Assembly (NCBI GenBank): GCA_000165345.1
Contig: CM000433.1
Coordinates: 448,001 to 512,000 of the forward strand
Direction: 5' to 3'
DNA: 64,000 nt
Within the stretch, counting starts at the first letter, position 1, and every line of letters begins with the position of its first letter. A model generated the notes under the pieces. That model saw nothing but the letters and a program-made list of their open reading frames with translations, was not told the origin of the DNA and did no database searches. Positions 1-52,290 of this stretch are shown here, in pieces. A program made the position numbers and the translations under genes.

Positions 1-1
1 T

Positions 2-1348: not shown

Positions 1349-1900
1349 TTAATGTGTTTCTTATCCAAATACGTAAATTAATATCGTTTAGTAACAATTT
1401 TCATTAGTTGATGACAAAATAATATATAAATAATAATGAATTTCCTTGATAATTTGCCATCTATTTAAATTACACCATTCTCGTTATGCAAATCTTGCTT
1501 TTATCGCATTATACATGCAAAAGTACATATATATGCATGCATGCACAATGTGGACATATTTTTGCAATATACAGCGTAGAGGACTGAAAAAATAATGTGT
1601 GCAAATCAAGAAAAAATAAAAATAAGAAACTTAGTGAAATAAATTGTTTATGCTTAAGTTCTTTAGAAGGTAGAAAGAGGAGTTACAATTTATTTGATAG
1701 CTAATTTGACAAGAATTTATTAAGTTTAAAAAAAAAAGGTGGCGGCTTATAGGGTTTAATGCTAATGAATATATGCAGAAAAAAGGTGCGTATAAACAAA
1801 ATTATATAATATTAATAATTTGGGGCGAATTAGCATTTTTTGAGTCTAATAGTTTCAAAGGTTCAAGAAATTCCCTATATATAATCTTGGGAAAAGTAAA

Positions 1901-3946: not shown

Positions 3947-3993
3947 GTTTATAACTTAAAATATAGCTTCAATTAATCAAGCCAATCTATCAA

Positions 3994-5638
<1,645 letters not shown>

Positions 5639-6592: not shown

Positions 6593-6732
6593 TATTAATT
6601 TTAAGTTATAATAAATGGCTATTTGAATCATTAAATGAGTAAGGAGTCAGTAAAATAAAAGATAATTATAATATATATGAAATGTATGAAAGAATTGATT
6701 CAACATTAAAACTTATTTGAAATATATTAAGA

Positions 6733-7536: not shown

Positions 7537-8051
7537 ATTTTAATTAATAAAGTTAACAGAAATGCCGTTTTCTTTTTTTAAGAGCGTTTTAAATTAATTG
7601 TACTGATGATTATGGCCAGTATTTTGTTAGCATAGTATTGCCTTTTAGCTTGGGAGATTGATTTTTCAATAGTATTTGACAAAATAGTTAAACCAAGAAA
7701 GCTAATAAGTTACCAATAAGCTTTTAAAATGGACAAATAACTGAAATCAAATTCTAAAGATAATTCGATTACAGCTTTTAGAGGAATTAATATTTCTTAT
7801 CAAACTTTTCTCGAGTAGATTTATTAGTTAATTGCGTAGAATATTATTTTTTTTAAATTCTTTTCACGTCCCTGTAATGTGGAGGTACCGAAACAAAAAG
7901 ATAAATTTGGCGGTCAAACATGCAATTAACGGAAAAAGAGAATGATTAATTAACTGATCTAAAAAGAAGTAAAAGCTATAAATATAAAAAGATAATTGAA
8001 GGTTTAAAAGAAAATGAATTTGGAGATTTTGGCCAATTTTAATTTCCAAGA

Positions 8052-11000
8052 TTAAGCGATCTTGTTAATAGCAGTACAAGGAAGTAGTATTCTTCCTGAT
8101 CTGGAAGTCTTAATACTTTTGAGAAACTCCTGTAAAAGTTCTTCACAACCGTTAAGATTTTCTTCAGGCTCCCAGGTAGGTTGTACTGGCTGTCCAGGAA
8201 CTTTCCATTTGATTAAGTATTCCTTTTGTTTAGTTAGAGGTTTTTCACGAATGCTGAGTATTTGTTCAACCTCGTATTCAACAAGACTTAGCTTCTTTGA
8301 TTCCCAAGAATAATCTTCATCCTTTTCAGCATAAATTGGATTTTTATCATCCAAATTATTCAAATTATTTGCGTTCTCTTTATCTTCAGTTTTTGTTGAA
8401 GATCTCCTTTCTCTTTTCCTTGTTCTAGAGTTTACCTGAGGTTTAGAAGTGGTATTATTTGAACCCTTTTGGCTAGATAAAGATGATCTTTTGTTGGAAT
8501 TTGGCGGAATAGAGGATAATAAGCAGTTAGATTCTGAGTCATTTTTTTGTTCTGGAATAGCATCCTTGCTCCGTTTGCAAGAATTAGAACTTGTTTTCTT
8601 GGATTCTGTATTTGAATCAAACGCATTTTTTAAAAGAACGGGGGATTCATTAATTGTTGATATATTGTTTGTAGCGTTAGTGGTAGTATTGGAGATAGAA
8701 ATAATAGCACTATCTGTTGTTGGGGATGAGCCAAGTGGAGTAGTATCTTCTGGGACTTGAATAGTTGCAGCTATAGCTTTGGAAGAGCTAGAACTTTTTC
8801 TAGAAGAGGAATTTCTATTGCTAGAGGACCCCCTTCTTTTGTTTGGAACCTGGTTCTGATCATTGGTACAGACTTCATTGGTAGTTACAGTTTGAGTGTT
8901 ATCATTTGAAGGGATATGTAAGGCAGGCAATTCCTGAATAGTAGTTGGCTTTACAATATCTAAAACATTGCTATGGGCTGAATTTCCAGGGGGGTTTAGT
9001 TCTCCCTTGTTTTCCTGAGTTTTGATGGTTTCTTTAATATTGTTGAGGTTAACGGTGGCAGAGAGATTCATCTCTTCGTCATTAAGAGGTTTGTACTGTT
9101 CTTGGGAACAAGGATCAGACTTACAGATACGTTTTGTTGCTTGGGATTTAGAGCTGTTACCTCTTCCTGGACGCCATTTGGCGTTTGGCCTTAAGACTCC
9201 AAAGACTATGGAGTTATAACAAGCTAAGATACGATACACTGGTTTTTCTCTTAGTGAAAGTTTGACTAGGGACCTTTGTATTATTAGCTGTTTTTGTCTA
9301 TCTGGTAAGGATTTGAATTGTCCAAAATTAGAGAGCAGCCCAACCAATGCTATTGGATTAGCTGGGATACATCTTCCCAATCTTGATGATAAGAGAATGC
9401 AGCTGTTAATAGAGGAGTTGTGTTTATTCCAACAGAGCTCGTCCTCTTCAGATGTGAAACCAATTTTTGTATCATATCCATCCCTACCTAAATAATTGTG
9501 AAGAGCTTTTAAAACTCCGTTTTTGTAAAGAATTAAAGTTATACCCTCTAATAGCCATGCACCGATAATTCGGTTATTCTGATTATACATCTCTCCGATT
9601 TCTCTATCAATCATTTCTTTAAGAGTGTTAGAATTTGTATCTCCCTTTTCTGTTTCATTTTCCACGGGAGGTTCCTGACTGGTGTAGCTTTGGGGGCATC
9701 TAGAAGTGATTGAATCAAGAGACCAGTATCTACTATTCGAAAGAGCTTTCTTAACAATCATGTGGTGAGTTTTTGGAGCCAAAATAATTGGATTTTGAAT
9801 TAATGGCCTTTTAAATAAGCTCATTCTATCTGGATCGTTCCATTCATGGATAAATCCATCTTGAGTCAAAGCAATAAATTCTCCATTTAGACTAGAAAAA
9901 TCAATAACTTTTCTCCCAATCAGTGATCCCTTCAAGACTTTTAGGCTAATCTTGCTTGAAAAACACTCTTCACCTCGTCTGTCTAGTTCTCTAATGGAAA
10001 TCTTGGGCTTGAGATCACAGCTCTGCTCTGGCTCTTCTGTCTGAGCTTGTCTTCGATCCCAATTCCAAAGCATCCCATTTTGCAATAATATCAACCCAAA
10101 ATCAGAATTAGACCCACAAAACACCTTTCTACATATAACTGGAAGGTCCAATACAATCATTTTATTATTTTTACCAATTTCACTACTTTTTTTTAGAATG
10201 ATACTATTGCTTTGCCCATCAGCCAAAAGGGAGGTAATGGCCATTCCATATTTATATGGGAAAGATGGAAAGTCATCAAAGGCAATGTCCTGATACTCAC
10301 TATATTCTTCAGCTCTTTCGCCCTTTTCAAAGTCTTTTTTGTACATTGGCATCATCTCTGATAGTGTTACATCAACAGTCCTGTAAAACTCATTGTCTAT
10401 CTTCCTCTCAGATTGGCTTCCATCATGATTCTTTGGGTTTAGCTGAGTTAGATCTATACAGCGGACATTATTAAATCCTCCTTGGATGGATGAGCTATGC
10501 TCCACGATCCAAACTTTGCCATCATTTGCTAGGCACGCCAAAACGAAGCTTTTAATACCGAACTTGTGGTCAAAATTTGTAGCCTCCACCGCCAATGAGG
10601 TGATTCTCAACCCTCGAATATTCTTATCATCTAATTCCTTGATGCTAAGCCAACTGCCTTGGACAATACTACTCTCAAGAAGCAGCGTGTTGCTACTATT
10701 TATACTGTTTCTCTGTTCATTTCCAGATTCGGGACGCTCTTGTTGACTACCAACTAATATCCCTTGGATCTTTTGATAGTTCTCCAAATTGCCGTGAAGA
10801 CTTTCATTCATATCATTAAGTGATACATAAACATGGCCATTGTTCAATAGCACCGCAATGTGATATCTAGACATGGCTAACTCTCTAACAGGAATCTGCT
10901 GAGGAAGTTTTCGCCAAAGACTGGAATAACAGAGCCGAATCCCCATATTTCCTCCACCTGAGTTAAATCCATTTGATTGAGAATATCTATCAAAACCTGC

Positions 11001-14633: not shown

Positions 14634-15695
14634 ATGGATTTATTTTGGCATAAATTTACTTGTAGTATATTATTGCTTATATCTGCTATACTTGGATATT
14701 TCTTTCCAGCTAAGATTGATAATGATGAGAAGAATAAGGGACGTAAAAGCAAGATTCTTCCAATTATGACTGCTTTTGGAGCAGGAGCTTTTATTGCACT
14801 GGCACTTGTTCATCTCATTCCAGACGCAATAGAAGATTCAAGCTCTGGATTATTGTCTTTTAAAATAGCAGGCATTGAGGTTAATTGTGTTTGCCATTTA
14901 ATTTTGTTGGGTTTCTTATTTTCGATAATTTTTGAGAGTATTGCTGATGAGTATTTTGGGTCAAATGGAATACATGGTCATAGCCACACTAGGCATAACA
15001 CAGATTCTAATCATATGAAAGATAACATAAACTCCAATATGATGAGTACTAACGTCTCATCCGAGTATTCATCAGATGAAGATTCATGTATTATTGATAA
15101 ATTTGGCACAGATTTAACAGCTGGTAGGGAAAATTCATCGTTATGCATATCTGGTTCAATTAATAAAAACCCAACATTATCATCAAAGAAAGCCAGAGTA
15201 AATTTGGCAGAGAATGATAATGGATTGAAGGCAGAATTAGGCAAAAGCTCAGTTGGATTTGTTTTGGTTTGTGCATTATTCTTCCATTCTCTATTTGAAG
15301 GTATGGTTGTTGGAACTTCAAAAAGTATTATGGGCACTTGGATGATTACCTGCGTTATTTTTGCTCATAAGTGGATTGAAATTTTAATTGTATATATGAC
15401 TCTTATTTCAAAGGGCATTAACCCTTTGGCTTACATTATTATTCTTTCTTTTGGATCACCTTTAGGCGCAATGATTGGAGCCATTGTTATTATCTCAAAT
15501 TCAGTTGCATCAGCTGTTTGTTCAGCTCTTGCAGCAGGGACAATACTTTATGTTGCTTGTATTGAAGTTATACCAGATGTTTTTAATGACAAGCACTCAA
15601 TCCGCACTCTTATAAAGTTAGGATCTTTTGTTACTGGGATTCTAACTGTTTCTACGATTACCTTAGTTAGCGAAATAGTAGAGAATTCTTATTAA
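14634..15695 (+). CDS. ZIP-family (SLC39-like) metal/zinc transporter.
   Basis: ATG at 14634. It has multiple TM segments, a His-rich loop (GHSHTRHNTDSNH), and the ZIP signature 'FFHSLFEGMVVG' with a conserved H/E in the TM helix. Confidence 0.75.
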   Translation: MDLFWHKFTCSILLLISAILGYFFPAKIDNDEKNKGRKSKILPIMTAFGAGAFIALALVHLIPDAIEDSSSGLLSFKIAGIEVNCVCHLILLGFLFSIIFESIADEYFGSNGIHGHSHTRHNTDSNHMKDNINSNMMSTNVSSEYSSDEDSCIIDKFGTDLTAGRENSSLCISGSINKNPTLSSKKARVNLAENDNGLKAELGKSSVGFVLVCALFFHSLFEGMVVGTSKSIMGTWMITCVIFAHKWIEILIVYMTLISKGINPLAYIIILSFGSPLGAMIGAIVIISNSVASAVCSALAAGTILYVACIEVIPDVFNDKHSIRTLIKLGSFVTGILTVSTITLVSEIVENSY

Positions 15696-16013
15696 ACGTT
15701 AATGGTTCTTGGTTTAATTTTTTTGATTCTCTTTTGTTCAATTGGCCACTTCTAATAAATACGTTCTATTCAGAGTTGGCTCCTACTTTTACTTCAATTC
15801 AAATTTGTTTATTTAAAATTTAATCACTTAAAATTTTACAATCTCCCGCATCTTCTATGTAGCGTTTTCTTGCATGCATGCAACAATTAATTCATGTGGA
15901 CAAATAAATTAAGAGGGAAATAATTTAAAAGAATAAGAGGACAAATTAATGGCTTAATAAAAATTTATATTTATTTATGTAAAGTAGATTTTTGGACCCG
16001 AATTTTTTATATA

Positions 16014-16609
16014 ATGGTTTTGGGCGAAGTTTCTGGTTTATCAAAACCTCGTGTAAGTTTTCGAATAGCAGCTTCTTTGAAAGTAAAGCCAAACACGCAG
16101 GATGATGTTGACTAAATTTGAATTTGCTACATATTTAGATAGATGAATTGAGGCAATTCTTCAAGATTGTAGATAGAGATAAAGCAGGAAAAATTTCTGA
16201 AGAGAAGATAATACATATGTTAAATGCTATTGGGGTGCAATTAACAAAAAGAGATAAACTTGCAATTAAAGCAGGTAAGACTTTGACAATTTAAAGACGA
16301 ATTAATAATTCATGAAATTGAATTTCTATTTTAGAGTCCAACGAGAGAGGTCTTTACACTGTTGATGATTTAATTAGAATTGGTGAGGTTGTTTATAATG
16401 ACAGAGCTATTGCCAGGGATTTGGTGGAATCATTGCAATCAATCTCCAATGGAAAAGATACAATAAGTTCTGCCGAATTGAGAAAACATCTCTTAAACAT
16501 TGGGTCAATCATTAAATTAACACCAGAAGAAGTGAACTGTATACTAAGTGATATCGGCGAAAGTAACATAAACATCTATGATTTTGTGTCCTATTGTATT
16601 TCAGAATAA
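16014..16609 (+). CDS. EF-hand protein (calmodulin / myosin-light-chain-like). I predict 3 exons: 16014..16052, 16139..16274 and 16335..16609.
   Basis: The ORF track lists only the last 62 codons. Exon 2 encodes a canonical EF loop, 'DRDKAGKISEEK'. Intron 1 runs from GTAAGT to TATTTAG (86 nt). Intron 2 runs from AG|GTAAGA to TTTTAG (60 nt). Both preserve the frame with no internal stops. A GCATGCATGCA box sits about 140 bp upstream. Confidence 0.55.
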
Positions 16610-17592
16610 AACACATAGACAACGAAGGGAATAATCTAAAAACGCAATCAATCTTCCTAAATATAATGTAAAATCAGAAGATCCGTTTATTTGTCCTCAG
16701 CTATGCATACAGAGTACACATATGTAGGATCAGGTCTGTCCATTTTCGTCATTTTAAACATTATACTAAGTGTATTTTATGATTATGCGTTTAATATACT
16801 TAATTATATAATTTATATAAAGGTTTTTCTTTTTTTTTTTTTGAAAAATAGATTAATTCTTATTTAAACAAAATTAGTTCAAAAAGCTTTAAATATTCAT
16901 GTGAATCAATACATTATTTTAATAACTGTCATTTATCGGTAATATATACATTTGAATTTAAAGTTCAACTCAAAATATCCTGTTTTGGGAATAAATTTAA
17001 TTTTTTTTCATATTTGTTGAGAAGTGGTCATAATCGTTACAAATAGTCAGAAAGACGCTTAAAGTATTTGTCTCTGATACTTTATTAAATCATATTAATT
17101 AGACGTTAATAACATATGCAATTTTAATTTAGTAATAAATATCAACAAAAAATTAAGGCGGTATATTCTGGAATTTAAAATTTGTTTTCGATAATTTAAT
17201 GCATGACATATTAAGATGTCAACAAAAAATTATTTTCAAATAATAAAAGTGAATAAACAAACATAATAGTAATAAAATAATCTATTACAGAACTCTATAA
17301 TTTTTTTTCCAGTAAATCATTAATCAGTTGTATCGGATTATTATTATTTTTTTTACAAATTTAATTATTTATTAATTTATAATGTAAAATTTCTCCCCAC
17401 ATTTCTTGAATTGTAGTGCTAAATAGTATTTCAGAGATAATATTTATAAAAATATATGCCGGCACTTAATATTACGTAATTGCATGCAAATAAATAATAT
17501 TTTTTTAAAAATATGTTTATTTCAAGTAATGAGATTTTAGATAATTGTAAAAAATATAAAGAAAATGAAGCAGAATAGAAAATACTTTAATA

Positions 17593-18094
17593 ATGGCATT
17601 ATTATCTGACTTCATTGAAAAATCATACTTGAATATACTGAAAAATATTGATAACTTTGAATATTCAGAATGCAATGACCCACTAATAAAACAACAGAAA
17701 AGAGCAAATAATGAGTTGGAATCGTTACTTTTTGATCATGTAAGTTTCTTGGATGATTAAAAGAAATTTAATTGGCAAGTAAAACGAATATTAAGTGCCA
17801 TTAAATAATGATAGTAATAAATAATTGACTTTTAATTAATAGAAGAATAGTGGAGAAATCTTATCTAAAAAAGATTCAATTTTGGGTGAACTTGCTACTC
17901 TTAAAGAAGCTCAAGAAAAAAAATTATATCAAAGAAAAAAGAGTAAATATGTCAAAATAAATATGATAAAACATTTGATTAAAGGTGAGTTATTATATAT
18001 AATAAAGATTAAAGTTTAATAGACTTTACAAATTGCAGAGAATTTGGATTCTTTGAATATAATCAAGAGCAAATCTCAGAATATTAGGATTTAA
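17593..18094 (+). CDS. Hypothetical small coiled-coil protein of about 114 aa. I predict 3 exons: 17593..17739, 17843..17984 and 18039..18094.
   Basis: ATG at 17593. Exon 1 ends at the GTAAGT donor at 17740. Exon 2 is bounded by a TTAATAG acceptor and a GTGAGT donor. Exon 3 follows a TTGCAG acceptor. The frame is continuous to TAA at 18092-18094. CCGGCA and GCATGC motifs lie 110-130 bp upstream. I see no family homology; this is a pure gene-model inference. Confidence 0.35.
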
Positions 18095-18155
18095 ATACTG
18101 AAGACATAAATTTATATTAATCCTTCTTTGTTACTTTTTTAGTCATTTAAACTAT

Positions 18156-18530
18156 TTAATAGCCATAAAATCCTTCTTTTTGCATTAATTCAATATGACG
18201 TTCATTCTCCAAACTTAGCATGTTAATCGTTTTATCCATTAACTTTCTAGTCTTTATATCAATAAGCTTTGCCATGGAATATCTACTTATTAATTCGTCA
18301 TCTGTAGCATACCTAGGATTGAATGGCGTTTCATGAGAATATACATACATTCTAGTTTCATTATAAAGCTGATCCACTTCCTTTCTTGTATCATCCAAGT
18401 AATCATAAAGAGGTTCCTGCAAATAATTTGAGAGTCTATTCTTCAATTTAATTATTCCTGTATCAATTTTATGACGAAATTCTTTAATTTTCTTTAGATA
18501 TTCAATACTTTTTTCTTTTTCACTTAACAT
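18156..18530 (-). CDS. Hypothetical protein, 124 aa.
   Basis: ATG at 18530, a clean ORF with composition typical of the other genes. It is tail-to-tail with the 17593 gene. I recognise no motif. Confidence 0.45.
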   Translation of the reverse strand: MLSEKEKSIEYLKKIKEFRHKIDTGIIKLKNRLSNYLQEPLYDYLDDTRKEVDQLYNETRMYVYSHETPFNPRYATDDELISRYSMAKLIDIKTRKLMDKTINMLSLENERHIELMQKEGFYGY

Positions 18531-19229
18531 GTTTTTTTTGTTAGTTACCCACAGTAAATATGTTTAAAGCTTTAGTGATTATTTTTTTTCCTCGCTGCCT
18601 TTTCTTTCAATTTTGCATTTTAAACTCTTAATTTTGGGGTTGATGTAATTACATCAACCTTTTACTACTTTTGATACTAGAAAGATTCTCACCATGCATT
18701 AAATGACCTGTTAGGGCGGGAAATTTTAATCACAATTCACTGTAAGCACTAAGAGCAATATAATCAAGGATGACTAGTTTAAAGTAAACGAATAAAAAAA
18801 GATAATAAAAAAACAAAACATAAATATAAAAATGCATTATTACCTTTTGTGAGTGTTAAATTCAATAAAACATTTCGATAACTTATTCATAGATAAATTT
18901 TCGAATTTTAGATACTTGGCGGCATGTGTGTAAAATAACATGCAAAAAAATAATAATTTAATATATAAGAACTAAAGAAAATTTGACTAAAGTTGTTAGG
19001 CCAAATGGTTAATTTGTTTAGACTACAATGAAGTAGCTAATAATGTTTTTTTATAATTAATAGAGTAGAGAGCGTTTCTTTAATTGTAAATAATACAACT
19101 TTTATTAACCACTATTAAAGTACATAAGTTACCATTTTAATCTTCAAAATCTGCAAAAATTTACTGTTTTATTAACCAATTAGTTTAATTGTTTTCCATA
19201 AAGAATAAAAATAATCATTAATAGAGTTT

Positions 19230-22200
19230 TCAATTAGGTGCTTCTTTTTTTATTGGAATCGGAGGGCTTTTCTTTATAGGAGCAGGAGCAGTAGGAGCGT
19301 CTTTTTTCATAGGCGGCGCAGATGGTAAATCTTTTTTCATTGGTGGAGAAGTTGGTGCACCCTTTTTCATTGTTGGAGATAATGGAGCATCCTTTTTCGC
19401 AGGCGGTATAGCTGGGGCATCCTTAGCTGGAGAATCTGGAGCAGCTGGGGCATCTTTCTTCATTGGAGGTGCAGCAGGAGCGTCCTTCTTCATTGGTGGT
19501 ACAGCGGGAGCATCTTTTTTGGCTGGTGGAGGAGCTGGGGCATCCTTTGCTGGAGATTCTGGAGCTGGTGGAGCATCCTTCTTCATTGGAGGTGCAGCAG
19601 GAGCATCCTTCTTCATTGGAGGTGCAGCAGGAGCGTCCTTCTTCATTGGTGGTGCAGCAGGAGCGTCTTTTTTTGCCGGAGGAGCAGCTGGGATATCCTT
19701 TGCTGGAGATTCTGGAGGGACTGGAGCATCTTTCTTCATTGGAGGTGCAGCAGGAGCGTCCTTCTTCATTGGTGGAGGAGCTGGAGCGTCTTTTTTGGCT
19801 GGTGGAGAAGCAGGAGCATCCTTTGCTGGAGGAGCTGGGGCATCCTTCTTAGCTGGAGGGGCAACAGGAGCATCCTTTGCTGGAGGAGCTGGGGCATCCT
19901 TCTTAGCTGGAGGTGCAGCAGGAGCATCCTTCTTCATCGGTGGTGCAGCGGGAGCATCCTTTGCTGGAGATTCTGGAGCTGGGGCATCCTTCTTAGCTGG
20001 AGGTGCAGCAGGAGCGTCTTTTTTAGCTGGCGGAGCAGCTGGGGCATCCTTCTTAGCTGGAGGTGCAGCAGGAGCGTCTTTTTTAGCTGGCGGAGCAGCT
20101 GGGGTATCCTTCTTAGCTGGAGGTGCAGCAGGAGCGTCTTTTTTAGCTGGTGGAGCAGCAGGAGCATCTTTCTTAGCTGGTGGAGCAGCAGGAGCAGCCG
20201 GGGCATCTTTCTTCATTGGTGGAGCAGCAGGAGCGTCTTTTTTAGCTAACGGAGAAGCTGGGGCATCCTTTGCTGGAGATTCTGGAGCTGGCGGAGCATC
20301 TTTCTTCACTGGTGGAGCGGCAGGAGCGTCTTTTTTAGCTGGCGGAGCAGCAGGGGCATCCTTCTTAGCTGGAGGTGCAGCAGGAGCGTCTTTTTTAGCT
20401 GGTGGAGCAGCAGGAGCATCTTTCTTAGCTGGAGGAGCAGCAGGAGCAGCAGGAGCATCCTTCTTAGCTGGAGGAGCAGCAGGAACAGCTGGGGCATCCT
20501 TCTTCATTGGTGGAGCAGCAGGAGCATCTTTCTTAGCTGGAGGAGCAGTAGGAACAGCTGGGGCATCTTTCTTTAGTGGAGCGGTAGGAGCATCCTTTTT
20601 AGCCGGAGGAGCAGCTGGGGCATCCTTTGCTGGAGATTCTGGAGCTGGTGGAGCATCTTTCTTCATTGGAGGTGAAGCAGGAGCGTCCTTCTTCACTGGT
20701 GGAGCAGCAGGAACAGCCGGGGCATCCTTCTTAGCTGGAAGTGCAGCAGGAGCGTCTTTCTTCATTGGTGGTGCAGCGGGAGCGTCTTTTTTAGCTGGTG
20801 GTGGAACTGGGGCATCCTTTTTAGCTGGAGATTCTGGGGCTGGCGGGGCATCCTTTGCTGGAGGTGCAGCAGGAGCATCCTTCTTCATTGGAGGTGCAGC
20901 AGGAACGTCCTTCTTCATCGGTGGTGCAGCGGGAGCATCCTTCTTAGCTGGCGGAGCAGTAGGAACAGCCGGAGCATCTTTCTTCATTGGAGGCGCAGCA
21001 GGAGCATCCTTTTTAGCCGGAGGAGCAGCTGGGGCATCCTTCTTAGCTGGAGGTGCAGTAGGAACAGCTGGGGCATCCTTTTTAGCTGGCGGAGCAGCAG
21101 GAGCAGCAGGAGCATCCTTCTTTAGTGGTGCGGCAGGAGCAGCTGGGGCATCCTTTTTAGCTGGCGGAGCAGCAGGAGCAGCAGGAGCATCCTTCTTAGC
21201 TGGCGGAGCAGCAGGAGCAGCAGGAGCATCCTTCTTAGCTGGAGGAGTAGCAGGAACAGCTGGGGCATCCTTCTTCATTGGTGGAGCAGCAGGAGCATCT
21301 TTCTTAGCTGGAGGAGCAGCAGGAGTAGCAGGAGTAGCAGGAGCATCCTTCTTAGCTGGAGGAGTAGCAGGAACAGCTGGGGCATCCTTCTTCATTGGTG
21401 GAGCAGCAGGAGCATCTTTCTTAGCTGGAGGAGCAGTAGGAACAGCTGGGGCATCTTTCTTTAGTGGAGCGGTAGGAGCATCCTTCTTAGCCGGAGGAGC
21501 AGCTGGGGCATCCTTTGCTGGAGATTCTGGAGCTGGTGGAGCACCTTTCTTCATTGGAGGTGCAGCAGGAGCGTCCTTCTTCATCGGTGGTGCAGCGGGA
21601 GCATCCTTTGCTGGAGGAGTTGGGGCATCCTTCTTTAGTGGAGCAGCAGGAGCATCCTTCTTAGCTGGAGGAGCAGCGGGAGCATCCTTTTTAGCTGGTG
21701 GGGCAACAGGAGCAGCTGGGGCATCCTTCTTTAGAGGAGCAGCTGGGGCATCCTTCTTAGCTGGAGGAGCAGCAGGAGCAGCTGGGGCATCCTTTTTAGC
21801 TGGCGGAGCAGCAGGAGCAGCAGGAGCATCCTTCTTTAGCGGAGCAGCTGGGGCATCCTTCTTAGCTGGAGGAGCAGCAGGAGCAGCTGGGGCATCCTTC
21901 TTTAGTGGTGCGGCAGGAGCAGCTGGGGCATCCTTTTTAGCTGGCGGAGCAGCAGGAGCAGCAGGAGCATCCTTCTTTAGCGGAGCAGCAGGGGCATCCT
22001 TCTTAGCTGGAGGAGCAGCAGGAGCAGCTGGGGCATCCTTTTTAGCTGGAGGAGCAGCAGGAGCAGCTGGGGCATCCTTTTTAGCTGGAGGAGCAGCAGG
22101 AGCAGCAGGAGCATCCTTCTTTAGCGGAGCAGCAGGGGCATCCTTCTTAGCTGGAGGAGCAGCAGGAGCAGCAGGAGCAGCAGGGGCATCCTTTTTAGCT

Positions 22201-24062
22201 GGAGGAGCAGCAGGAGCAGCTGGGGCATCCTTCTTTAGCGGAGCAGCTGGGGCATCCTTCTTTAGTGGTGCGGCAGGAGCGTCCTTTTTAGCTGGAGGAG
22301 CAGCTGGAGTAGTTGGGGCATCCTTCTTTAGTGGTGCGGCAGGAACATCCTTCTTTAGTGGCGCTGCAGGAGCATCTTTCTTTGCTGGTGGAGCAGTAGG
22401 AGCAACTGGGGCATCCTTCTTTAGCGGAGCAGCAGGGGCATCCTTCTTAGCTGGAGGAGCAGCAGGAGCAGCTGGGGCATCCTTCTTAGCTGGAGGAGCA
22501 GCAGGAGCAGCTGGGGCATCCTTCTTTAGCGGAGCAGCTGGGGCATCCTTTTTAGCTGGCGGAGCAGCAGGAGCAGCAGGAGCATCCTTCTTTAGTGGCG
22601 CAGCAGGGGCTTCTTTCTTTGCTGGAGGCACAACTAGAGCGTCCTTTTTAGCTGGTGGAGCAGCTGGGGCATCTTTTTTGGAAATTAGTGAAGGCTCATT
22701 GCTTTCCAAGCTTGATTTTATAGTTTCAGATGCCTTGGAATTACTTGAATTTAAATCTATAGAGTTATCTTTGTGGCCAGCAGAGCTTAAATTTTGCTCC
22801 TTATTACTTAAAATAGCGCTAGAGTTCTTGGAAGCAGAGATAGAAGGCGACTTCAAAGAGGATGAGACGGACTTACCAACAGATTCAACCATTTCCTTAA
22901 CTTCTCCGATTGGTTTTTCAATATTTTCGATAAATTTATGAATACTTCCCTCTTTTTTAGAAATATCTGTTTTACTTTGTTCAATATGGCTCTTGCTAGT
23001 ATTTAATTTCGATACTGAAGCATTTGATTTGCTTTGAGGCAAAGCCTGCGATAAAGCTTTTGATGATTCCAAAGAAGAACGACTTACTTGGGAATGAGTC
23101 TTTGAATGATCCATGGATGGCATCTTAGATTGTGATTGTTTTGGTGTTGAAAGTTTATCAGATTTTCCAGATTCTAATTGAGACTTGTGCTTAGAATACT
23201 CACTCTCTGGATTAATGTCACTTTCATCGTTAATTTTGCTTGATGAGGGCATTGAATGTTTAGATCCTATAATGTTTTGTTGAATACTTTCAGGATGCTC
23301 CGAATTTTTATTAGCTTCTATCCTTAATCTTTCTTCATTTAACTTGGCTGCTCTACTCTTTTTCTCAAATTCAATAATGTTTTCTTGAAGATGTTTAATG
23401 GAATCATCCAATTTTGGCTCTAATAAATAAATTCTTTGTTGAACTGCTCTCTCTACTAATGCCTTAGAAATATTCAAAGCATTTTCTTCTGGGTTATCAA
23501 GTAAGTACTTCAATGTATAAGAAATGTAATGCACGCATGCATCCAAACATTTTTGGCTATAATTCAAATTACTACTCAAGTTCTTTGAGTCCATTGTTCG
23601 ATTGGCTTTAAGGGCATCTTGAGCAGATTTGAGTGACTCTTCTAGACGGTAATTTTCATCTTGGAGAATCTCATTCTGCTCCTTGAGCTTTTCAAAAAGC
23701 TGCCTTAATTGAGAATAATTATCTCTATATCTTCTTACAGTTTCTTGAGCATCCGAGCCTGTAACAAAATGTTCTGAATGCTGTCCTCTATGAGTATCGC
23801 TAACGCCCATACAACTTGATAGTATACTACCACCCAAGCCTTTTTTAAAGCATCTTGCAATTGAAGACCCTCTTGTACTATCCAAACCAGAATTTATTGC
23901 GCTTGTTGGCCTACTTTTTGAATTTTTAGAATTGAACATAGTCTGGTCAAGAGGTGGAACAGAACTTTGACGATAATTCATTGCTAAAGACTCTGTACTT
24001 CTTCTATTGTTTGGCGATAAACGAGAGCTTGCTCTGTTTTTATCATTGTAGAACGTACTCAT
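19230..24062 (-). CDS. Giant low-complexity protein of 1610 aa. It has an N-terminal ~470-aa Ser-rich/coiled-coil region followed by ~1100 aa of degenerate tandem Pro/Ala/Lys repeats (PPAKKDAPAA, PAAPLKKDAPAA, PPMKKDAP, PAPESPAKDAP).
   Basis: ATG at 24062. It is an uninterrupted ORF through a 3.4-kb DNA tandem array, and the repeat units keep frame. The C-terminus is 'PIKKSPPIPIKKEAPN'. The opposite-strand 1140-aa G/A/S/F ORF is a mirror artefact. Confidence 0.8.
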   Translation of the reverse strand: MSTFYNDKNRASSRLSPNNRRSTESLAMNYRQSSVPPLDQTMFNSKNSKSRPTSAINSGLDSTRGSSIARCFKKGLGGSILSSCMGVSDTHRGQHSEHFVTGSDAQETVRRYRDNYSQLRQLFEKLKEQNEILQDENYRLEESLKSAQDALKANRTMDSKNLSSNLNYSQKCLDACVHYISYTLKYLLDNPEENALNISKALVERAVQQRIYLLEPKLDDSIKHLQENIIEFEKKSRAAKLNEERLRIEANKNSEHPESIQQNIIGSKHSMPSSSKINDESDINPESEYSKHKSQLESGKSDKLSTPKQSQSKMPSMDHSKTHSQVSRSSLESSKALSQALPQSKSNASVSKLNTSKSHIEQSKTDISKKEGSIHKFIENIEKPIGEVKEMVESVGKSVSSSLKSPSISASKNSSAILSNKEQNLSSAGHKDNSIDLNSSNSKASETIKSSLESNEPSLISKKDAPAAPPAKKDALVVPPAKKEAPAAPLKKDAPAAPAAPPAKKDAPAAPLKKDAPAAPAAPPAKKDAPAAPAAPPAKKDAPAAPLKKDAPVAPTAPPAKKDAPAAPLKKDVPAAPLKKDAPTTPAAPPAKKDAPAAPLKKDAPAAPLKKDAPAAPAAPPAKKDAPAAPAAPAAPPAKKDAPAAPLKKDAPAAPAAPPAKKDAPAAPAAPPAKKDAPAAPAAPPAKKDAPAAPLKKDAPAAPAAPPAKKDAPAAPAAPLKKDAPAAPAAPPAKKDAPAAPLKKDAPAAPAAPPAKKDAPAAPAAPPAKKDAPAAPLKKDAPAAPVAPPAKKDAPAAPPAKKDAPAAPLKKDAPTPPAKDAPAAPPMKKDAPAAPPMKKGAPPAPESPAKDAPAAPPAKKDAPTAPLKKDAPAVPTAPPAKKDAPAAPPMKKDAPAVPATPPAKKDAPATPATPAAPPAKKDAPAAPPMKKDAPAVPATPPAKKDAPAAPAAPPAKKDAPAAPAAPPAKKDAPAAPAAPLKKDAPAAPAAPPAKKDAPAVPTAPPAKKDAPAAPPAKKDAPAAPPMKKDAPAVPTAPPAKKDAPAAPPMKKDVPAAPPMKKDAPAAPPAKDAPPAPESPAKKDAPVPPPAKKDAPAAPPMKKDAPAALPAKKDAPAVPAAPPVKKDAPASPPMKKDAPPAPESPAKDAPAAPPAKKDAPTAPLKKDAPAVPTAPPAKKDAPAAPPMKKDAPAVPAAPPAKKDAPAAPAAPPAKKDAPAAPPAKKDAPAAPPAKKDAPAAPPAKKDAPAAPPVKKDAPPAPESPAKDAPASPLAKKDAPAAPPMKKDAPAAPAAPPAKKDAPAAPPAKKDAPAAPPAKKDTPAAPPAKKDAPAAPPAKKDAPAAPPAKKDAPAAPPAKKDAPAPESPAKDAPAAPPMKKDAPAAPPAKKDAPAPPAKDAPVAPPAKKDAPAPPAKDAPASPPAKKDAPAPPPMKKDAPAAPPMKKDAPVPPESPAKDIPAAPPAKKDAPAAPPMKKDAPAAPPMKKDAPAAPPMKKDAPPAPESPAKDAPAPPPAKKDAPAVPPMKKDAPAAPPMKKDAPAAPDSPAKDAPAIPPAKKDAPLSPTMKKGAPTSPPMKKDLPSAPPMKKDAPTAPAPIKKSPPIPIKKEAPN
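19250..22690. repeat. Coding minisatellite. These are tandem 30-nt and 39-nt units (RC: ccagctgctcctgctgctcctccagctaagaaggatgc...). I estimate ~100 copies with point variants.
   Basis: Direct inspection shows near-identical units reiterated across the whole interval. Both strands show long ORFs because of the repeat structure. Confidence 0.9.
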
Positions 24063-24247
24063 TGATTAGGCCTTTACTAAATCAAATTTTATTTCATTTA
24101 AACAAATACAATTTTTTCCACTAGTTTTTATATCCCAATTTTTTATTTATTTTACGATTTTTATTTTTTTAAATATCAATTCTTCACACTTTTTTTTTTA
24201 GATATTTTATTATTCAATCTAAATGCATGTAATTTGTAATGAAAAAG

Positions 24248-24270
24248 TACCGGTAATTCAGGCGGGAAAA
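24248..24270. promoter_or_regulatory. ACCGGTAATTCAGGCGGGAAAA, an ACCGGTA box adjacent to a canonical E2F half-site. It sits in the divergent intergenic region between the repeat-protein gene and the EndoG-like gene.
   Basis: The motif is present in the sequence. Its function is inferred. Confidence 0.35.
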
Positions 24271-24757
24271 GACACGTATTATTTGATAATTATATAAATA
24301 AATTTATATTAACTTGTAAAATTATTTGCCAAATATAGAATTTGAGAAAAATTTATTATTATTTTTTTTTTTATCAGGGAAAATTATGTGTGATTAGAAT
24401 TTACGTAGTGGCAATTACTATATATTATTCTCAATTAGGTAGTTATAATTAGGAGTATTCGTTGTTTTTTTTTTTGAGGAAGTTTAATATATTTAGATTT
24501 TGAAAATATTAGTGAAATTAAAAAAAAAAAAAAAAAAGCATTAAACTATACATTTATTGTGAGTAATTTTTTTTATTAATACGAGGGAAATTTATATAAT
24601 TTCATTTTAATATTTATTGATATAATTTTTTGATTAAATAAATATATATATTATATTCCGGGAATTGCTACATCACAATATAAGACTTGTATTCATTCCA
24701 TATAAAAAAAACTAGTATTTGAATGTAAAAAACCACTGTTAATTTAATGTTGAAAAT

Positions 24758-26176
24758 ATGACTATGAAATCGACAGTCAATCTAATGCTCGGGGTAGCAA
24801 TCGGAACAGCAATTGGCTATAAGCTGTATCCCAATATTGAAGGAAATAATCTGAAGCATAACCTATTAAAGAATATGGATATTCAGCATGTTAATATTGG
24901 ACAGAAATATTTTTCAAAGAAGTTTAATAAGTATTCGGATAAAATTGTAAAATCTGTGACAGGCGGATTCTATCCATCAGTTAAACTTCCTAGTACTGAA
25001 AATCTAATTCTTAGAGAGTCTTATTTATCATCTGTTTCCTTTAGAGACAAAATACCCAATTGGGTAGCTGAGAAGATATCTAATGAAACTTGTTCAGGAA
25101 AAGCAAATAGGGCAGACTGTGTTTTCCAAGTAGACCCAGATGTTCCGTTGATTTGGAGTGCTGAAAACAAGGATTACTTTGCAAGTGGATATAGCAGAGG
25201 ACATATGGCAGCAGCCGGCCAGCATAAAAATACAGAAACGGCCCAATCTGATACATTTTATTTATCTGGAAATATACTCCCACAAGATTTATCCAATAAT
25301 GGAGCAGATTGGTACAGATTGGAGCTCATTTCAAGAGAACTTACAAATTATTATCAAGATGTTTATGTAGTTTCAGGCCCACTATTTGCTCCGAATTATA
25401 TGCGTTCTAAGGACTTTAAAAAATTGGCACAAAATTTAGAAAGTATTAAAAAGGAAGATCCTCCAAAGGATGCGCTTGGCCAGATATGTGTTATACACAA
25501 GAAAGACGTTCTCGACAAGGCTAGAGAATTAGGAGATGAGAAAAAAATGGATCCAAACCTCATTGTTAAATCTGATTTGAAAGATACCCCAGTTAATACT
25601 GTTACTTATGAAGTAATAGGTGACAAGCTCGTCTCCGCTCCACCACATTTATTCAAAGTTATTTTAGCAGTCAATCCAAAGAAAGAAAAGGATATTGATG
25701 TTCCTCCTGTTGCGTTTGGAAGCTTCATTATGAAGAATGAACCTGAAAGCAAGAGACATCTAATTACTGAATACATGGTGCCTTTAAAAAGTATTGAAAT
25801 TTCTACAGGCTTAGACTTCTCAGGTCTCAAAGAATTTACAATCAATTATCTAAAAGCTAATATATCAAGGAAAGATTTTAAAAAGCTTTTAAACTATGAA
25901 GATTTGGATGAATTTGAGAATATGTACAGCATTTGTAATGTTAAAGACACTCTAAGACATGGTAAAAGTGCTCAATCTATATGTAATGATGAGGACTCAG
26001 AAAGAGTAAAGTCTTGGAGGTATCTTGGGTATATTAAATTATCTAAAACTAAAAAAGAACTCGAAGACATATGGAATACCATCAAAAGCAACGGATATGA
26101 TAAAGAAAATTTCTTCCTTAGAAAAGAATATGTAAATAAATGCAAATCTCTTGGAATTGAACCAGAGAAATTCTAA
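24758..26176 (+). CDS. DNA/RNA non-specific endonuclease, EndoG/NUC1-like (His-Me finger), with a hydrophobic N-terminus.
   Basis: ATG at 24758. 'SGYSRGHMAAAGQHKNTETAQSDTFYLSGNILPQ...WYRLELISRELTNYYQDVYVVSGPLFAP' aligns with the EndoG active-site block (FDRGHLAAAANH...DTFYLSNVAPQ...W..LE...R.L...YQNVYVCTGPLF). Confidence 0.85.
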   Translation: MTMKSTVNLMLGVAIGTAIGYKLYPNIEGNNLKHNLLKNMDIQHVNIGQKYFSKKFNKYSDKIVKSVTGGFYPSVKLPSTENLILRESYLSSVSFRDKIPNWVAEKISNETCSGKANRADCVFQVDPDVPLIWSAENKDYFASGYSRGHMAAAGQHKNTETAQSDTFYLSGNILPQDLSNNGADWYRLELISRELTNYYQDVYVVSGPLFAPNYMRSKDFKKLAQNLESIKKEDPPKDALGQICVIHKKDVLDKARELGDEKKMDPNLIVKSDLKDTPVNTVTYEVIGDKLVSAPPHLFKVILAVNPKKEKDIDVPPVAFGSFIMKNEPESKRHLITEYMVPLKSIEISTGLDFSGLKEFTINYLKANISRKDFKKLLNYEDLDEFENMYSICNVKDTLRHGKSAQSICNDEDSERVKSWRYLGYIKLSKTKKELEDIWNTIKSNGYDKENFFLRKEYVNKCKSLGIEPEKF

Positions 26177-31740: not shown

Positions 31741-32832
<1,092 letters not shown>

Positions 32833-35030: not shown

Positions 35031-38000
35031 TCAATTTCTAGCTTGGCCAGGGGGATAAAAATAAAATGATCCTTGATTTTTGTTAGTTAAACCTTCAACA
35101 TACATATATCTTTTGACTTCTTCAGATCCTCCAGATTTCCCACAATAATAGTTAACATGATAGTTACTTCTTCCTAATTCATTAACATACTTATTATTAG
35201 GTTTGATAAAATATTCGGGATATTTTATTTGAGTATGATTATCTCCACCATTATAGTAGTAACTGCTGGTATTAACGTTATTACTATTACTGTTACTAAT
35301 ATTACTAAAATCCCGAATATTCGAATAATTATTGGATGTTGGGGAATTAGAATTACTACCCAAATAGTAACTGTAATAGTTTTTGGTATTATTAATAGGT
35401 TCTAAACTTTTAGGTGAAATATGATTATAATCTTCATATTCGTAATTGTATTTGGGAGTATTTTCTATAATTACTTGACTGTTTTTTGGGATGTTATAAT
35501 TATTTTTTGGACTAAATACTTTAATAGATTCTTCAGAATTACTTTCTGGATAATCTTTTATATATCTTCTACTAGTTTCTTGAGTAATAATATCATATCT
35601 ATTATTACCTGGCTTAATGTATCTTTCCCTATTGTATTTAATATTTGAGCTGGTACTATTTTTAAAGTTATGATCAGTTTCTATTTCAACTTGATCATTG
35701 TTAGCATATCCAGATTTTAATCTTTGAGCTTTTTTGACTAATCTAGTATTATCAAGAATCTTATATATTTCATTTCTAAATATTGAATCAACTTTTTTAT
35801 CTTTTTCAAGGAAATTGGTTGTTTCAGGAACTTGAGAAGAAGTTGATTGATTTTGATCTTCTTTAATATGCTCAAAATGGGTGTTAACACCTTTTTCTTG
35901 GTAATTATTATTAAATTTTGGAATAATTTCTGTGTTAACTGAAGCATCTAAAAATATCTTAGGATTAAAAATTTCATGTGTTGGTAGTATTTCTTCTATG
36001 ACAATATATCCTTCTTCTTTATTTAAAGACGGTCTTTCATTAATATAATTAGAAGAATCAGGCTGAATATCATCAAATTTTACTTTCAAATCAATATCTT
36101 TTTTAGTATAACTTTCTTCTTGATTAAATATAGAGATTTTGTTGTTAATTTCTCTAAATTTCTTATTAAGCTTATTATTAATTCTATAAAGTTTATTAAA
36201 CTGTTTAATTTTATTAACTTTACTACGAGAATGTTGAGTCTTTAAAGCTTCAGATATAAATTCAGAAGATATGTTTGGATGATCATTTTTTCCTGAACAA
36301 CATTCTAATGCTTGAAAAGAATAACCCACCATACCATGTTGATTCTTGACTTGTTTCTCAGAAATAAGCATTGTATTCTCAAATAAGAATTTGTCTGAAG
36401 ATATACTCATAAACAATGAATCATCAATCTCTTGAATACTAACTTGTTGATATAAATGAGGATGATCTTTGTGTAAATCTTGTTGAAGTTGAAAATTAAA
36501 GTGTGTATCCTTTTCTTCAGCTTGATTTTCAAGGCTATTCATATTATATTCATCAGAATTAAGATTTGCATGAGTATGTAAGTTATTAAATAGCTCATTA
36601 TACTCGTCAATATTTAAATTAGTATTCAAGATTTCATCTTCCATTCTTTCAACCATTGTTTGAGTAGTGTCAAAATGATTTTGATGTAAAAGATGAGTTT
36701 CTTCCTCTTCTTTTTCTTCTTCTTCTTTATTAATAATCGAATTATATTCATTTAAGGAGCTTTCCATTGAAGCTTGAATTTCATGATTAATTTCTATATG
36801 CTCTTGATCTGGAGGCTTTTCAATTGTTCCATGGAAGATATTAAGACGATTAGAGTCAATAATTTCTTGGATTAAAGAAATCTCTGAGAGATCTGGAATT
36901 TGTATGATATTTGTATGATCTTGCTTGTTTGCTATGCTGATATGGCTTAATTCTTCCATAATTGTATTTGAATCTGTTGCTATATTTTCTAGTATCTCAT
37001 CCAAATGATTTGTTTCAAAATTAATCTGATCAACTTCTTTTTGTTGATCTTCTGAATAATTTGAATTACTTACAATATTTAAGTAATTTTGTTCGTCTTC
37101 TTTGCTATTTTGGTTCTCTGTCTCTTTTTCTTCTAATTCTTTTTCTTTGTTTTCCTGATACTCCTTTTCGTCTTCCAATTCTTCTTTGTTTTCCTGTTCT
37201 TCTACTTTGCTTTCCTGATCCTCTTTTTTGTCTTCCATGTCATTATTTTTCTCCGGTTCTTCTTTGTTTTCCAAATCTTCTTCTTTGTTTTTCAGTTCAC
37301 CTTTTTCGTTTTCCAGGTCATTCCTCTTTTCCAATTCCTCTTTTTCGCCCTCCAATTCTTCTCCATTTTCCATGCCATCCTTTTTATCCAAATTTTCTTC
37401 CTTTTCCGTCTCTTCTTCTTTATTTTCCTTCAAATCTTCTTCCTTGTCTATCTCTAACTTTTCAACAGGATTCAATTCTAACTCTGAATCAAGTGAATTA
37501 ACTTGTAACTCTGGATTTATTATGTTTGTTTGAGATTGCTTATTTTCCTCAATAATCTCCTTTTCATTATCTTCTTGTAAAGTGACTGAAGTATGATCTT
37601 TATTTCCTTCTTCTGATAAAGTTTCTACCAAAGGAAGATGTATTTCTTCTATATTGGTTTCTTTTTTCATTTTTCCATGAATAACATTCAGAGGTAATTG
37701 ATTCTTATCATTATTTTTTTCCTTTTCAAAGCAATCAACATCTTGTTTTATATCAACATTTTCTTCTTTATTAATCTCTGAATACAAAACAAATTCATTC
37801 TTCTCTTCCTTATTATCTTCCTCTTCTTCAGTATCATGAATATAAAATTCTGAATCAGAAACTTCATCATTTAAAAAACTACTCTTCTTCAGTTCATCAA
37901 TTGGTTGATTAGAATCAACATTTAAATCATTATTTGTTTTCCTCCTTTCCTCTAATTCATCCAAACTTACTGGCTTTACATAATCCCAAATAGAGTTTGC

Positions 38001-52123: not shown

Positions 52124-52197
52124 GCCGCGATAGCTCAATTGGATAGAGCGTTGGACTTCTAATCCAGAGGCTCGGGGTTCGATTCCCCGTCGCGGTG
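52124..52197 (+). tRNA. tRNA-Arg (anticodon TCT).
   Basis: It has a cloverleaf. The acceptor is gccgcga/tcgcggt. The D arm is agctcaattggatagagc. The anticodon loop is ctTCTaa. The T arm is cgggg-ttcgatt-ccccg. CCA is not encoded. Confidence 0.85.
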
Positions 52198-52290
52198 CTC
52201 TTTTTTATATATATAACAAATTATGTGGTTTGGCGGGCTCCAGTTTTTTATAATTGTATAGGCAAACAGTCACTTTTGATTGTACGTGAT

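Follow-up and report, generated by a model that had tools for sequence, protein, structure and literature searches.

The 64,000-nt stretch of DNA analysed here (the window; NCBI GenBank assembly GCA_000165345.1, contig CM000433.1, positions 448,001 to 512,000 of the forward strand) belongs to chromosome 5 of Cryptosporidium parvum. It carries the gene cgd5_2180, annotated as "Uncharacterized protein", in line with a preliminary description of the sequence, which had recognised a Cryptosporidium gene and could match it with no named antigen. The product of this gene consists of a non-repetitive N-terminal part followed by a very long array of short units rich in Pro, Ala and Lys. This array is old, it seems to be still gaining and losing units, and its peptide type, reading frame and approximate total length appear to be under constraint. 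We propose, tentatively, that cgd5_2180 encodes an abundant, non-secreted and Cryptosporidium-only protein which may act as an intracellular structural scaffold of the zoite cytoskeleton or pellicle, the array forming an extended polycationic spacer tail anchored by the head. In its generic part, an intracellular, disordered and extended scaffold anchored by its head, this proposal is much more probable than in the specific location that it assigns.

Reading frame and architecture of the protein

In the list of open reading frames (ORFs) of the window, cgd5_2180 is a single ATG-to-stop frame of 1610 codons plus stop, encoding a product of 162 kDa with an isoelectric point (pI) of 9.8. Its parts are as follows.

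19230..24062, minus strand: complete coding sequence of cgd5_2180 (ORF list and DNA identity to an annotated 1610-aa gene)
23769..24062, minus strand: residues 1-98, predicted to be disordered (predicted local distance difference test, pLDDT, below 50), with two short motifs that are genus-invariant in a three-species alignment
23346..23759, minus strand: conserved head domain, residues 102-239, predicted as two long helices (AlphaFold2 and alignment)
22683..23345, minus strand: Ser-rich low-complexity linker, residues 240-460, with 26% Ser and poor conservation (alignment and composition)
21627..22682, minus strand: array zone 1, residues 461-812, with three short opening units and then 13-aa APAAPAAPPAKKD units interleaved with 9-aa APAAPLKKD units (unit maps)
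19233..21626, minus strand: array zone 2, residues 813-1610, mostly 10-aa APAAPPAKKD and APAAPPMKKD units (unit maps)

The array runs head to tail over residues 461-1610, i.e., 1150 residues, 3.45 kb (window 19233-22682) and 71% of the protein. The preliminary description had thus correctly placed an in-frame Pro/Ala/Lys array over the C-terminal two-thirds of a 1610-aa gene, whose strand is the minus one. When cut after K[D/E/G], the array yields 107 pieces, about 105 of which are real units, mainly of 10 aa (48), 13 aa (27) and 9 aa (15), together with variants of 8, 11, 12 and 16 aa. The earlier estimate of some 100 units of 30 and 39 nt therefore holds as to number, while the 27-nt class has to be added. 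The commonest peptide is the 13-aa APAAPAAPPAKKD, with 16 copies; APAAPPAKKD and APAAPPMKKD have 14 copies each and APAAPLKKD has 11. The variants once taken as sporadic are in fact regular constituents: PPMKKD units number 22, and eight units of the PAPESPAKD type, including four identical copies of APPAPESPAKD, recur at intervals through the distal two-thirds of the array. Within zone 1, the 13-aa and 9-aa units do not alternate strictly. Zone 2 is punctuated eight times by APPAPESPAKD-type units and also holds the 13- and 9-aa units of zone 1, the latter as far as residue 1166. The protein ends just past the array, as previously noted, with a degenerate tail ...PIKKSPPIPIKKEAPN. Tandem Repeats Finder reported overlapping arrays with periods of 27, 30 and 39 nt, and multiples of these, over 19333-22679, and this is the sole large tandem array within the window.

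The composition of the array is simple: 34% Ala and 30% Pro (64% together), 18% Lys and 9% Asp. Acidic residues (Asp and Glu) amount to about 10%, against 18% for Lys, and a KKD or KD charge cluster occurs every 8-13 residues, giving a net charge of about +91 and a pI of 9.9. Thr accounts for 1.6% (16 per 1,000 residues) and no Cys is visible in the array translation. Peptides derived from the array units are DAPAAPPAK, DAPAAPPMK, DAPAAPLK and DAPAAPAAPPAK. At the DNA level, the G+C content of the array reaches 56%, against 31% for the window. G+C at third codon positions is 0.25 in the array and 0.27 in the N-terminal part; because these values are equal, the rise is due to the Pro (CCN) and Ala (GCN) codons and not to a compositional island. 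A foreign origin of this G+C-rich block was rejected on the same ground.

The frame is not a chance one, as it stays open over 4.8 kb in a genome with 31% G+C and displays the codon-position signature of coding sequence. On the opposite strand, a 1140-aa ORF (19519-22941, plus strand; "GGAAGASFL...", "GGAAGASFLAGG...") was considered as a gene and rejected, being the antisense mirror of the codon composition of the repeats. It is the minus-strand frame that is coding, since it contains the conserved N-terminal domain in frame, shows variation at third positions and corresponds to the annotated gene. Automatic ORF callers could pick up this stop-free antisense frame.

The non-repetitive part described earlier as a Ser-rich/coiled-coil domain of ~470 aa was found again, as residues 1-460, with 20% Ser and 10% Lys. 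Residues 1-240 share 46-58% identity among C. parvum, C. ryanae and C. andersoni. AlphaFold2, run on the alignment of three sequences, predicted a first helix at residues 102-189, with pLDDT up to 96, and a second one at residues 193-239. In the model, the head forms a helical hairpin, and it may just as well belong to an intermolecular coiled coil. The predicted template modelling score of this model was only 0.27, as disordered residues make up 40% of it; residues 1-98 had no confident structure. Invariant blocks of the head are TVRRYRDxYSQLRxLFEKLKEQNxILQ (108-134), CLDACVH (172-178) and QRIYLLExKLD (209-219), the second of which contains a CxxxCxH arrangement that could be a metal or interface site. 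Two further motifs, in the disordered N-terminus, are invariant across the three-species alignment. RRsTxSL (aa 20-26, 23985-24005) resembles a site for basophilic kinases of the PKA/PKG/CDPK type. CFK...LSSC (aa 71-84, with CFK at 71-73 and LSSC at 81-84; 23811-23852) places an invariant Cys pair in a disordered, basic and hydrophobic context, and is a possible S-acylation site.

No homologue of the head was found outside Cryptosporidium by an exhaustive HMMER profile search of 1.84 billion representative proteins, which matched three Cryptosporidium clusters only (E 1e-110 to 1e-128). A sequence search of the PDB with the head gave no match, and Foldseek with the head model gave nothing at E <1. 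A Pfam scan of the full protein and of its N-terminal 460 aa gave nothing above threshold; at E up to 0.1, the full protein yielded a sub-threshold HALZ match in the coiled coil and no other. Word-indexed protein searches returned nothing for the head alignment, known members being also missed, so that the exhaustive HMMER search is the valid negative; they returned no match for a 300-aa array piece either, an uninformative result since Cryptosporidium partial proteins bearing the array were missed too. Exact look-up of the 1610-aa protein found it absent from the protein collection, though the gene is called in assembly GCA_015245375.1. Highly repetitive proteins seem to be under-represented in, or filtered from, the collection used for word-indexed and exact-match searches, which makes negative results there unreliable. 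The head thus appears, from these comparisons, to be a genus-specific coiled-coil module.

No signal peptide or transmembrane segment was detected in cgd5_2180 by the Kyte-Doolittle method, the maximum 19-residue mean being 0.62. The polar N-terminus, MSTFYNDKNRASSRLSPNNRR, shows conservation among the orthologues. A missed upstream exon encoding a signal peptide is unlikely, because C. ryanae and C. andersoni have kept both the start codon and the N-terminus.

Conservation and turnover of the array in Cryptosporidium

Syntenic loci were retrieved from other assemblies with the neighbouring endonuclease gene as an anchor. The same neighbours, including the divergent gene for a Nuc1p-like endonuclease G, were found in C. 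parvum, C. hominis, C. meleagridis, C. tyzzeri, C. ryanae and C. andersoni. The array is complete in the first three species and cut at a gap or contig end in the other three. Besides the gene of the window, four complete and stop-free orthologues were obtained.

C. parvum, GCA_048859185.1: 1598 aa
C. hominis TU502 (Sanger-era assembly): 1588 aa
C. hominis, GCA_045269125.1: 1499 aa
C. meleagridis, GCA_039657295.1: 1533 aa

Array lengths are 1149 and 1137 aa in the two C. parvum assemblies, 1127 and 1038 aa in the two C. hominis assemblies and 1072 aa in C. meleagridis, without any stop. These five arrays hold 95-107 units each and are nearly constant in composition (Pro 0.29-0.30, Lys 0.17-0.18). 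They also share the layout in two zones, a proximal one with 13- and 9-aa units and a distal one with mainly 10-aa PPAKKD and PPMKKD units punctuated by the PAPESPAKD type. Unit order differs between species, 64-70% of the C. parvum units having the identical type in C. hominis or C. meleagridis. Some variants are enriched in one species: APVAPLKKD is absent from C. parvum and present in 11 copies in C. hominis TU502, while APAAPAAPLKKD has 2, 0 and 9 copies in C. parvum, C. hominis and C. meleagridis, respectively. Such species-enriched variants indicate that some turnover and local spreading of units continue.

The incomplete loci are informative as well. In C. tyzzeri (GCA_007210665.1, locus piece 6212-9323), about 100 Ns lie inside the array and the gene is annotated as two proteins of 616 and 196 aa; the array is evidently collapsed in this assembly. 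In C. ryanae (GCA_009792415.2, VHLK02000021.1, locus piece 8001-10122), the annotated orthologue is a spliced, seemingly array-less gene of 459 aa (KAH8741553 / XP_067198569). The DNA itself remains stop-free from the ATG past the annotated splice to the contig end, over 707 codons, and an array of PPIKKAAPAAKD, PPAKD and TPAAKD units starts after about residue 554, the contig breaking inside it. The 459-aa model therefore looks like an artefact. In C. andersoni, a member of the gastric clade (GCA_001865355.1, locus piece 8001-9329), the ORF reaches the contig end inside a different repeat, SPTSPITTRPKSSTNTRSP..., located at the same position behind the same head and made of 31% Ser, 29% Thr, 18% Pro and 12% basic residues. 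Three features were thus found throughout the orthologue group: the head domain, a syntenic position beside the gene for endonuclease G, and a long C-terminal Pro-rich basic array. A head, a low-complexity linker and a long Pro-rich net-basic array make up a genus-wide architecture, in which the repeat sequence is lineage-specific.

The locus is difficult for short reads. Guo et al. (2015) listed cgd5_2180 among the "large repetitive sequences" that gave unmapped contigs in short-read assemblies of C. hominis (PMC4407392). Short-read contigs and "partial" GenBank proteins stop 37-140 residues into the array, or contain Ns, and gene models are wrong in several species: the C. ryanae one is spliced, and those of C. 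tyzzeri, C. hominis and C. meleagridis are split or partial. The DNA of cgd5_2180 is identical to that of a 1610-aa gene on CP044418.1 (GCA_015245375.1), and the window differs from that assembly by one 1-bp gap in 21.4 kb (on the window 14757-19229 side, compared with record piece 1-4472), so that the two are not byte-identical. They are of the same strain and assembly lineage, and for this reason offer no independent confirmation of each other.

As the preliminary description had anticipated for isolates, assemblies of one species are not alike in copy number. Between the two C. parvum assemblies, 18 kb of flank and N-terminal coding sequence show 8 substitutions and a small number of short indels. 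The 3.45-kb array adds 5 substitutions and 6 indels (9, 39, 42, 18, 105 and 39 nt), each of these six being a multiple of three. The two C. hominis arrays are separated by 11 indels of up to 65 aa. These indels may be biological or may partly reflect mis-assembly.

The units had been described as near-identical, which is true of the peptides and not of the DNA. Units with the same peptide exist in 7-9 DNA versions with 87-94% identity, differing at 19-40% of third codon positions, and in-register DNA comparisons of units are mostly only 60-75% identical. Among the 9-, 10- and 13-aa units, nucleotide diversity in the minus-strand frame is 0.34, 0.48 and 0.22 at codon position 3, and 0.04-0.13 at positions 1-2, i.e., 4-8 times higher at position 3. 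This large excess points to long-standing purifying selection on the array peptide. The array is also old, since units of the same peptide have diverged at third positions and since C. parvum, C. hominis and C. meleagridis have it in common. The idea of a recent expansion or of concerted evolution, drawn earlier from a supposedly high DNA identity, thus has to be abandoned in view of this synonymous divergence, of the sharing among three species and of the related array in C. ryanae. Only a few multi-unit blocks look recent.

20427-20718 and 21315-21606: duplicate block of 292 nt, 95% identical
19981-20135 and 20041-20195: duplicate block of 155 nt, 95% identical
21646-21920 and 22336-22610: duplicate block of 275 nt, 88% identical

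Expression, proposed role and alternatives

The gene is clearly expressed. In supplementary file 4 of Tandel (2019), mean log2 counts per million (CPM) are 9.29 in asexual stages, 10.75 in females in vitro and 12.67 (about 6,500 CPM) in females from mice, and file 7 places cgd5_2180 in the top-500 expressed gene lists of sorted stages (PMC6877471). It is not in the sheet of genes common to sporozoites and in-vivo females, and is in the sheet "SporoVSinvivo-Female". There it stands, among genes with raised expression in in-vivo females, beside actin, an articulin, a kinesin, a myosin light chain and proteins of the MORN and doublecortin/p25-alpha types (PMC6877471). In tandem mass tag (TMT) proteomics of excysted oocysts, its log2 average intensity is 21.75, compared with 21.88 for gp60, 22.49 for COWP1, 21.01 for alpha-tubulin, 19.76 for TRAP-C1 and 24.52 for actin (PMC12548878). 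TMT intensities do not measure stoichiometry, and they are biased upwards for a large protein giving rise to the same peptides many times over. The protein level is unchanged in a cowp8 knockout (PMC12548878). Far from being untranscribed or interrupted by stops, two situations which the preliminary description had set against its own reading, the locus is thus transcribed, its protein is detected and the orthologous ORFs are stop-free.

From a mechanistic point of view, the coiled-coil head may mediate oligomerisation, anchoring or both. The array, with 30% Pro, should lack regular alpha or beta structure and would rather be an intrinsically disordered, proline-stiffened and extended polycationic chain. 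Its computed contour length would be about 350 nm if 1,149 residues were fully in the polyproline-II conformation, the real chain being a shorter, stiffened coil. Such a chain would act by bulk physics, through its length, its stiffness and its regularly spaced Lys pairs making weak multivalent contacts with acidic surfaces, and could serve as a spacer, an entropic bristle or a spring projecting from the structure that holds the head. Indeed, length and composition are conserved rather than exact sequence: the five complete arrays are similar, unit order varies, and the repeat differs in C. ryanae and C. andersoni. A role based on bulk polymer physics is suggested because selection seems to bear on unit chemistry, frame and approximate length and not on order, and because the repeat has been replaced in gastric species while the architecture was kept. 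The likeliest setting would be the cytoskeleton or pellicle built during the assembly of zoites (merozoites, sporozoites). This is the most economical one given the lack of export signals, the high expression in zoite-assembling stages, the abundance in material from oocysts and sporozoites, and the co-listing with cytoskeletal genes. Among the functions imagined in the preliminary description, the cytoskeletal or pellicular ruler and the disordered scaffold are accordingly the best candidates, while the surface or secreted fibre is disfavoured by the lack of any signal peptide or hydrophobic segment. The spacer, called rigid in that description, would most likely be a flexible one.

Several points weigh against this scaffold proposal, in addition to the inflation of TMT intensity mentioned above. 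The disorder and extension of the array are deduced from its Pro, Ala and charge composition. Co-expression with cytoskeletal genes is guilt by association, and the gene has elsewhere been labelled "female specific" on the basis of those data. Nucleic acid would be just as plausible a ligand for a net-positive, Lys-rich polymer. Finally, the chemistry of the C. andersoni repeat is Ser/Thr-rich, so that the same function throughout the genus is an assumption.

Other explanations were considered. The Lys pairs may bind RNA, DNA or another polyanion, such as stored mRNA or the chromatin of macrogamonts and zygotes, in a condensate or packaging protein multimerised by the head. This would be in line with the net charge and pI of the array, with the roughly 10-fold rise of the transcript from asexual stages to in-vivo females, with a KK-x8-11-KK spacing loosely like that of bipartite nuclear localisation signals, and with (P/A)AKK motifs that resemble histone H1 and AlgP-type basic tails. 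We nevertheless regard such a function as unlikely, as an Asp stands beside the Lys pair or single Lys in nearly every unit, making the array a polyampholyte unlike H1 tails, in which acidic residues are nearly absent. Furthermore, no linker-histone, HMG, RRM or other nucleic-acid-binding domain emerged from the Pfam scan, and the gene is also in the top 500 in asexual stages and its protein abundant in excysted oocysts. The spacer chain of the scaffold proposal might, more specifically, be an independently evolved spring or ruler resembling the PEVK region of titin, the repeat-tuned length of this ~350-nm chain setting the spacing or elasticity of the pellicle, the cytoskeleton or another parasite-specific structure. 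Put in such precise terms, the idea is quite improbable; if true, natural variation in copy number should result in measurable differences in cell architecture.

The array might also be a functionally neutral runaway minisatellite, tolerated behind a head that alone matters and kept by replication slippage and unequal exchange. The rapid turnover of indels (6 in 3.45 kb in C. parvum, where the 18-kb flanks have 8 substitutions, and 11 between the C. hominis assemblies), the lack of conservation of unit order between species and the complete replacement of the repeat sequence in C. andersoni all fit this explanation. It is unlikely in view of the strong excess of synonymous over non-synonymous differences among units, and of a frame over 3 kb long that remains open in all five assemblies, from three species, with a total length within about 10%. 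In addition, a long Pro-rich basic repeat stands behind the same head in every species examined, and a 111-kDa tail would be costly at such abundance. A secreted, surface or oocyst-wall fibre, in the manner of an extensin- or mucin-like polymer, has in its favour that wall and surface proteins typically contain Pro-rich tandem arrays, that expression is raised in females, the stage which makes the oocyst wall, and that the protein was found in excysted-oocyst material that includes walls. It is very unlikely for a protein devoid of signal peptide and hydrophobic segments, whose conserved N-terminus makes a missing signal-peptide exon improbable, whose C. parvum array offers almost no Ser or Thr for O-glycosylation and whose level did not change in the cowp8 knockout. 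As for an assembly artefact, i.e., an array wrongly expanded or collapsed, or a non-coding satellite mis-called as a gene, the risk raised earlier is real insofar as short-read assemblies are unable to cross the array, the window and GCA_015245375.1 do not confirm each other and the exact unit count is different in every assembly. A gross artefact is extremely improbable, since four other chromosome- or contig-level assemblies (C. parvum, two of C. hominis, C. meleagridis) give uninterrupted ORFs of 1499-1598 aa, the codon-position signature is that of coding sequence, and both RNA and protein have been detected.

The scaffold proposal concerns a protein whose TMT signal is near that of gp60 and above that of alpha-tubulin, and which is highly transcribed, yet has neither a name nor a homologue outside the genus. 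An abundant, genus-restricted structural protein would be a candidate for understanding how the zoite or zygote is constructed. The locus is also a known breakpoint of short-read assemblies and a source of wrong gene models. Since near-identical isolates differ by unit-level indels, it could serve as a high-resolution typing marker, by long reads only, because the array is 3.45 kb long and of mixed unit lengths. More generally, an old array under peptide selection with live turnover of copy number speaks against interpreting all regular repeats in coding sequence as recently expanded. The gene had already been annotated and its repetitiveness mentioned in one paper (PMC4407392). Its architecture, genus-wide conservation, purifying selection, copy-number differences between assemblies and mis-annotated orthologues appear to be undescribed in the searchable literature, where no functional study of cgd5_2180 was found.

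Genomic setting and comparison with known systems

The identifier cgd5_2180 was derived from gene order, i.e., cgd5_2150 (ZIP), cgd5_2180, cgd5_2190 (endonuclease), cgd5_2200 (RRM) and cgd5_2240 (ALG7). In S7 Table of PMC12548878, cgd5_2150 is a ZIP zinc transporter, cgd5_2180 an "Uncharacterized protein" and cgd5_2190 a DNA/RNA non-specific endonuclease. ALG7, a 424-aa gene of glycosyltransferase family 4 located six genes downstream, is cgd5_2240 (PMC9713705). The flanking ORFs match exactly the C. parvum "Nuc1p like endonuclease G" (EAK88052, CPATCC_002229) and a 124-aa hypothetical protein (EAK88054, CPATCC_002227); by adjacency, cgd5_2180 is presumably EAK88053 / CPATCC_002228. Upstream of it, the gene layout is as follows.

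24063..24757, no strand: divergent intergenic region of 695 bp shared with the endonuclease gene, presumed to hold the promoter and 5' untranslated region of cgd5_2180
24758-26176, plus strand: gene for the Nuc1p-like endonuclease G

Elsewhere in the window, a (GAA/GAG)n tract of about 180 nt (32524-32704) encodes poly-Glu in a 363-aa ORF (31741-32832, plus strand), whose orthologues have 358-370 aa in other assemblies and species; this tract may vary, and would be PCR-sizable. A small tandem repeat (37137-37343; about 2 copies at periods of 60 and 78 nt, with 75-80% matches) is located in an uncharacterised 1431-aa ORF (35031-39326, minus strand), which has 1383-1427 aa in related assemblies. 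Two tRNA-Arg genes, both on the plus strand (52124-52198 and 52290-52365; anticodons TCT and ACG), are separated by 92 bp.

The functional comparisons that follow rest on general background and on composition. Within the same genome, gp900, gp60, the mucins and the MS, MM and VNTR (variable-number tandem-repeat) markers are likewise polymorphic coding tandem repeats, but these are either secreted, Ser/Thr-rich and O-glycosylated or short and PCR-sizable, whereas cgd5_2180 lacks a signal peptide and is rich in Pro, Ala and Lys. Neither the Ser/Thr-rich repeat chemistry of mucins nor the spaced Cys of COWP repeats (as featured in PMC12548878) was found in the A/P/K/D array. The Pfam scan gave no match to an alveolin/articulin repeat domain (IMCp, EKIVEVP-type), with which a pellicular location is still compatible.

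Tails of the histone H1, AlgP and Hc1 types also contain many (P/A)AKK motifs and carry a net positive charge. The array differs from them by an Asp in nearly every unit and by a Lys content half that of H1 tails, and no Pfam match to the linker-histone globular domain (PF00538) was obtained with the full protein. Ala/Pro-rich linkers are extended, semi-stiff tethers and, in the myosin essential light chain, the Lys-rich tip of the extension contacts acidic residues of actin. Those of pyruvate dehydrogenase E2, of the myosin essential light chain A1 ("APKK...(AP)n") and of TonB resemble the array in combining (A/P)n stretches with Lys clusters. They are however 20-70 residues long. The array, by contrast, numbers 1,150 residues in about 105 units and makes up most of the protein instead of joining folded domains.

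Microtubule-associated repeat proteins bind the acidic surfaces of tubulin in a multivalent manner or serve as projection domains, and in protozoa they are abundant and genus-specific. The KKEE/KKEx repeats of MAP1B, MARP-1/2 of Trypanosoma brucei and SPM1 of Toxoplasma belong to cytoskeletal proteins that are similarly large and made to a great extent of short tandem repeats with Lys-Lys-acidic clusters or near-identical units. Against this likeness, no sequence similarity was detected by Pfam, profile and word-indexed searches, and Cryptosporidium zoites have few microtubules. As far as sequence can tell, cgd5_2180 belongs to none of the families compared here, and its only demonstrable family is its own group of Cryptosporidium orthologues.

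The PEVK region of titin is disordered and rich in polyproline-II and, being anchored at its ends, works as an entropic spring or spacer. Like the array, it consists of long tandem repeats rich in Pro, Lys and Ala or Val with an acidic residue, down to literal "PPAK" strings (PPAK motifs, PF02818). The array differs by its units of 9-13 aa instead of about 28, by Asp instead of Glu, by the absence of flanking Ig/Fn3 domains and by its occurrence in an apicomplexan without sarcomeres, and the Pfam PPAK profile found no match in the full protein at E up to 0.1. The likeness is thus compositional and convergent, not one of homology, and by this analogy the PEVK region is the best model for the way in which the array may act.

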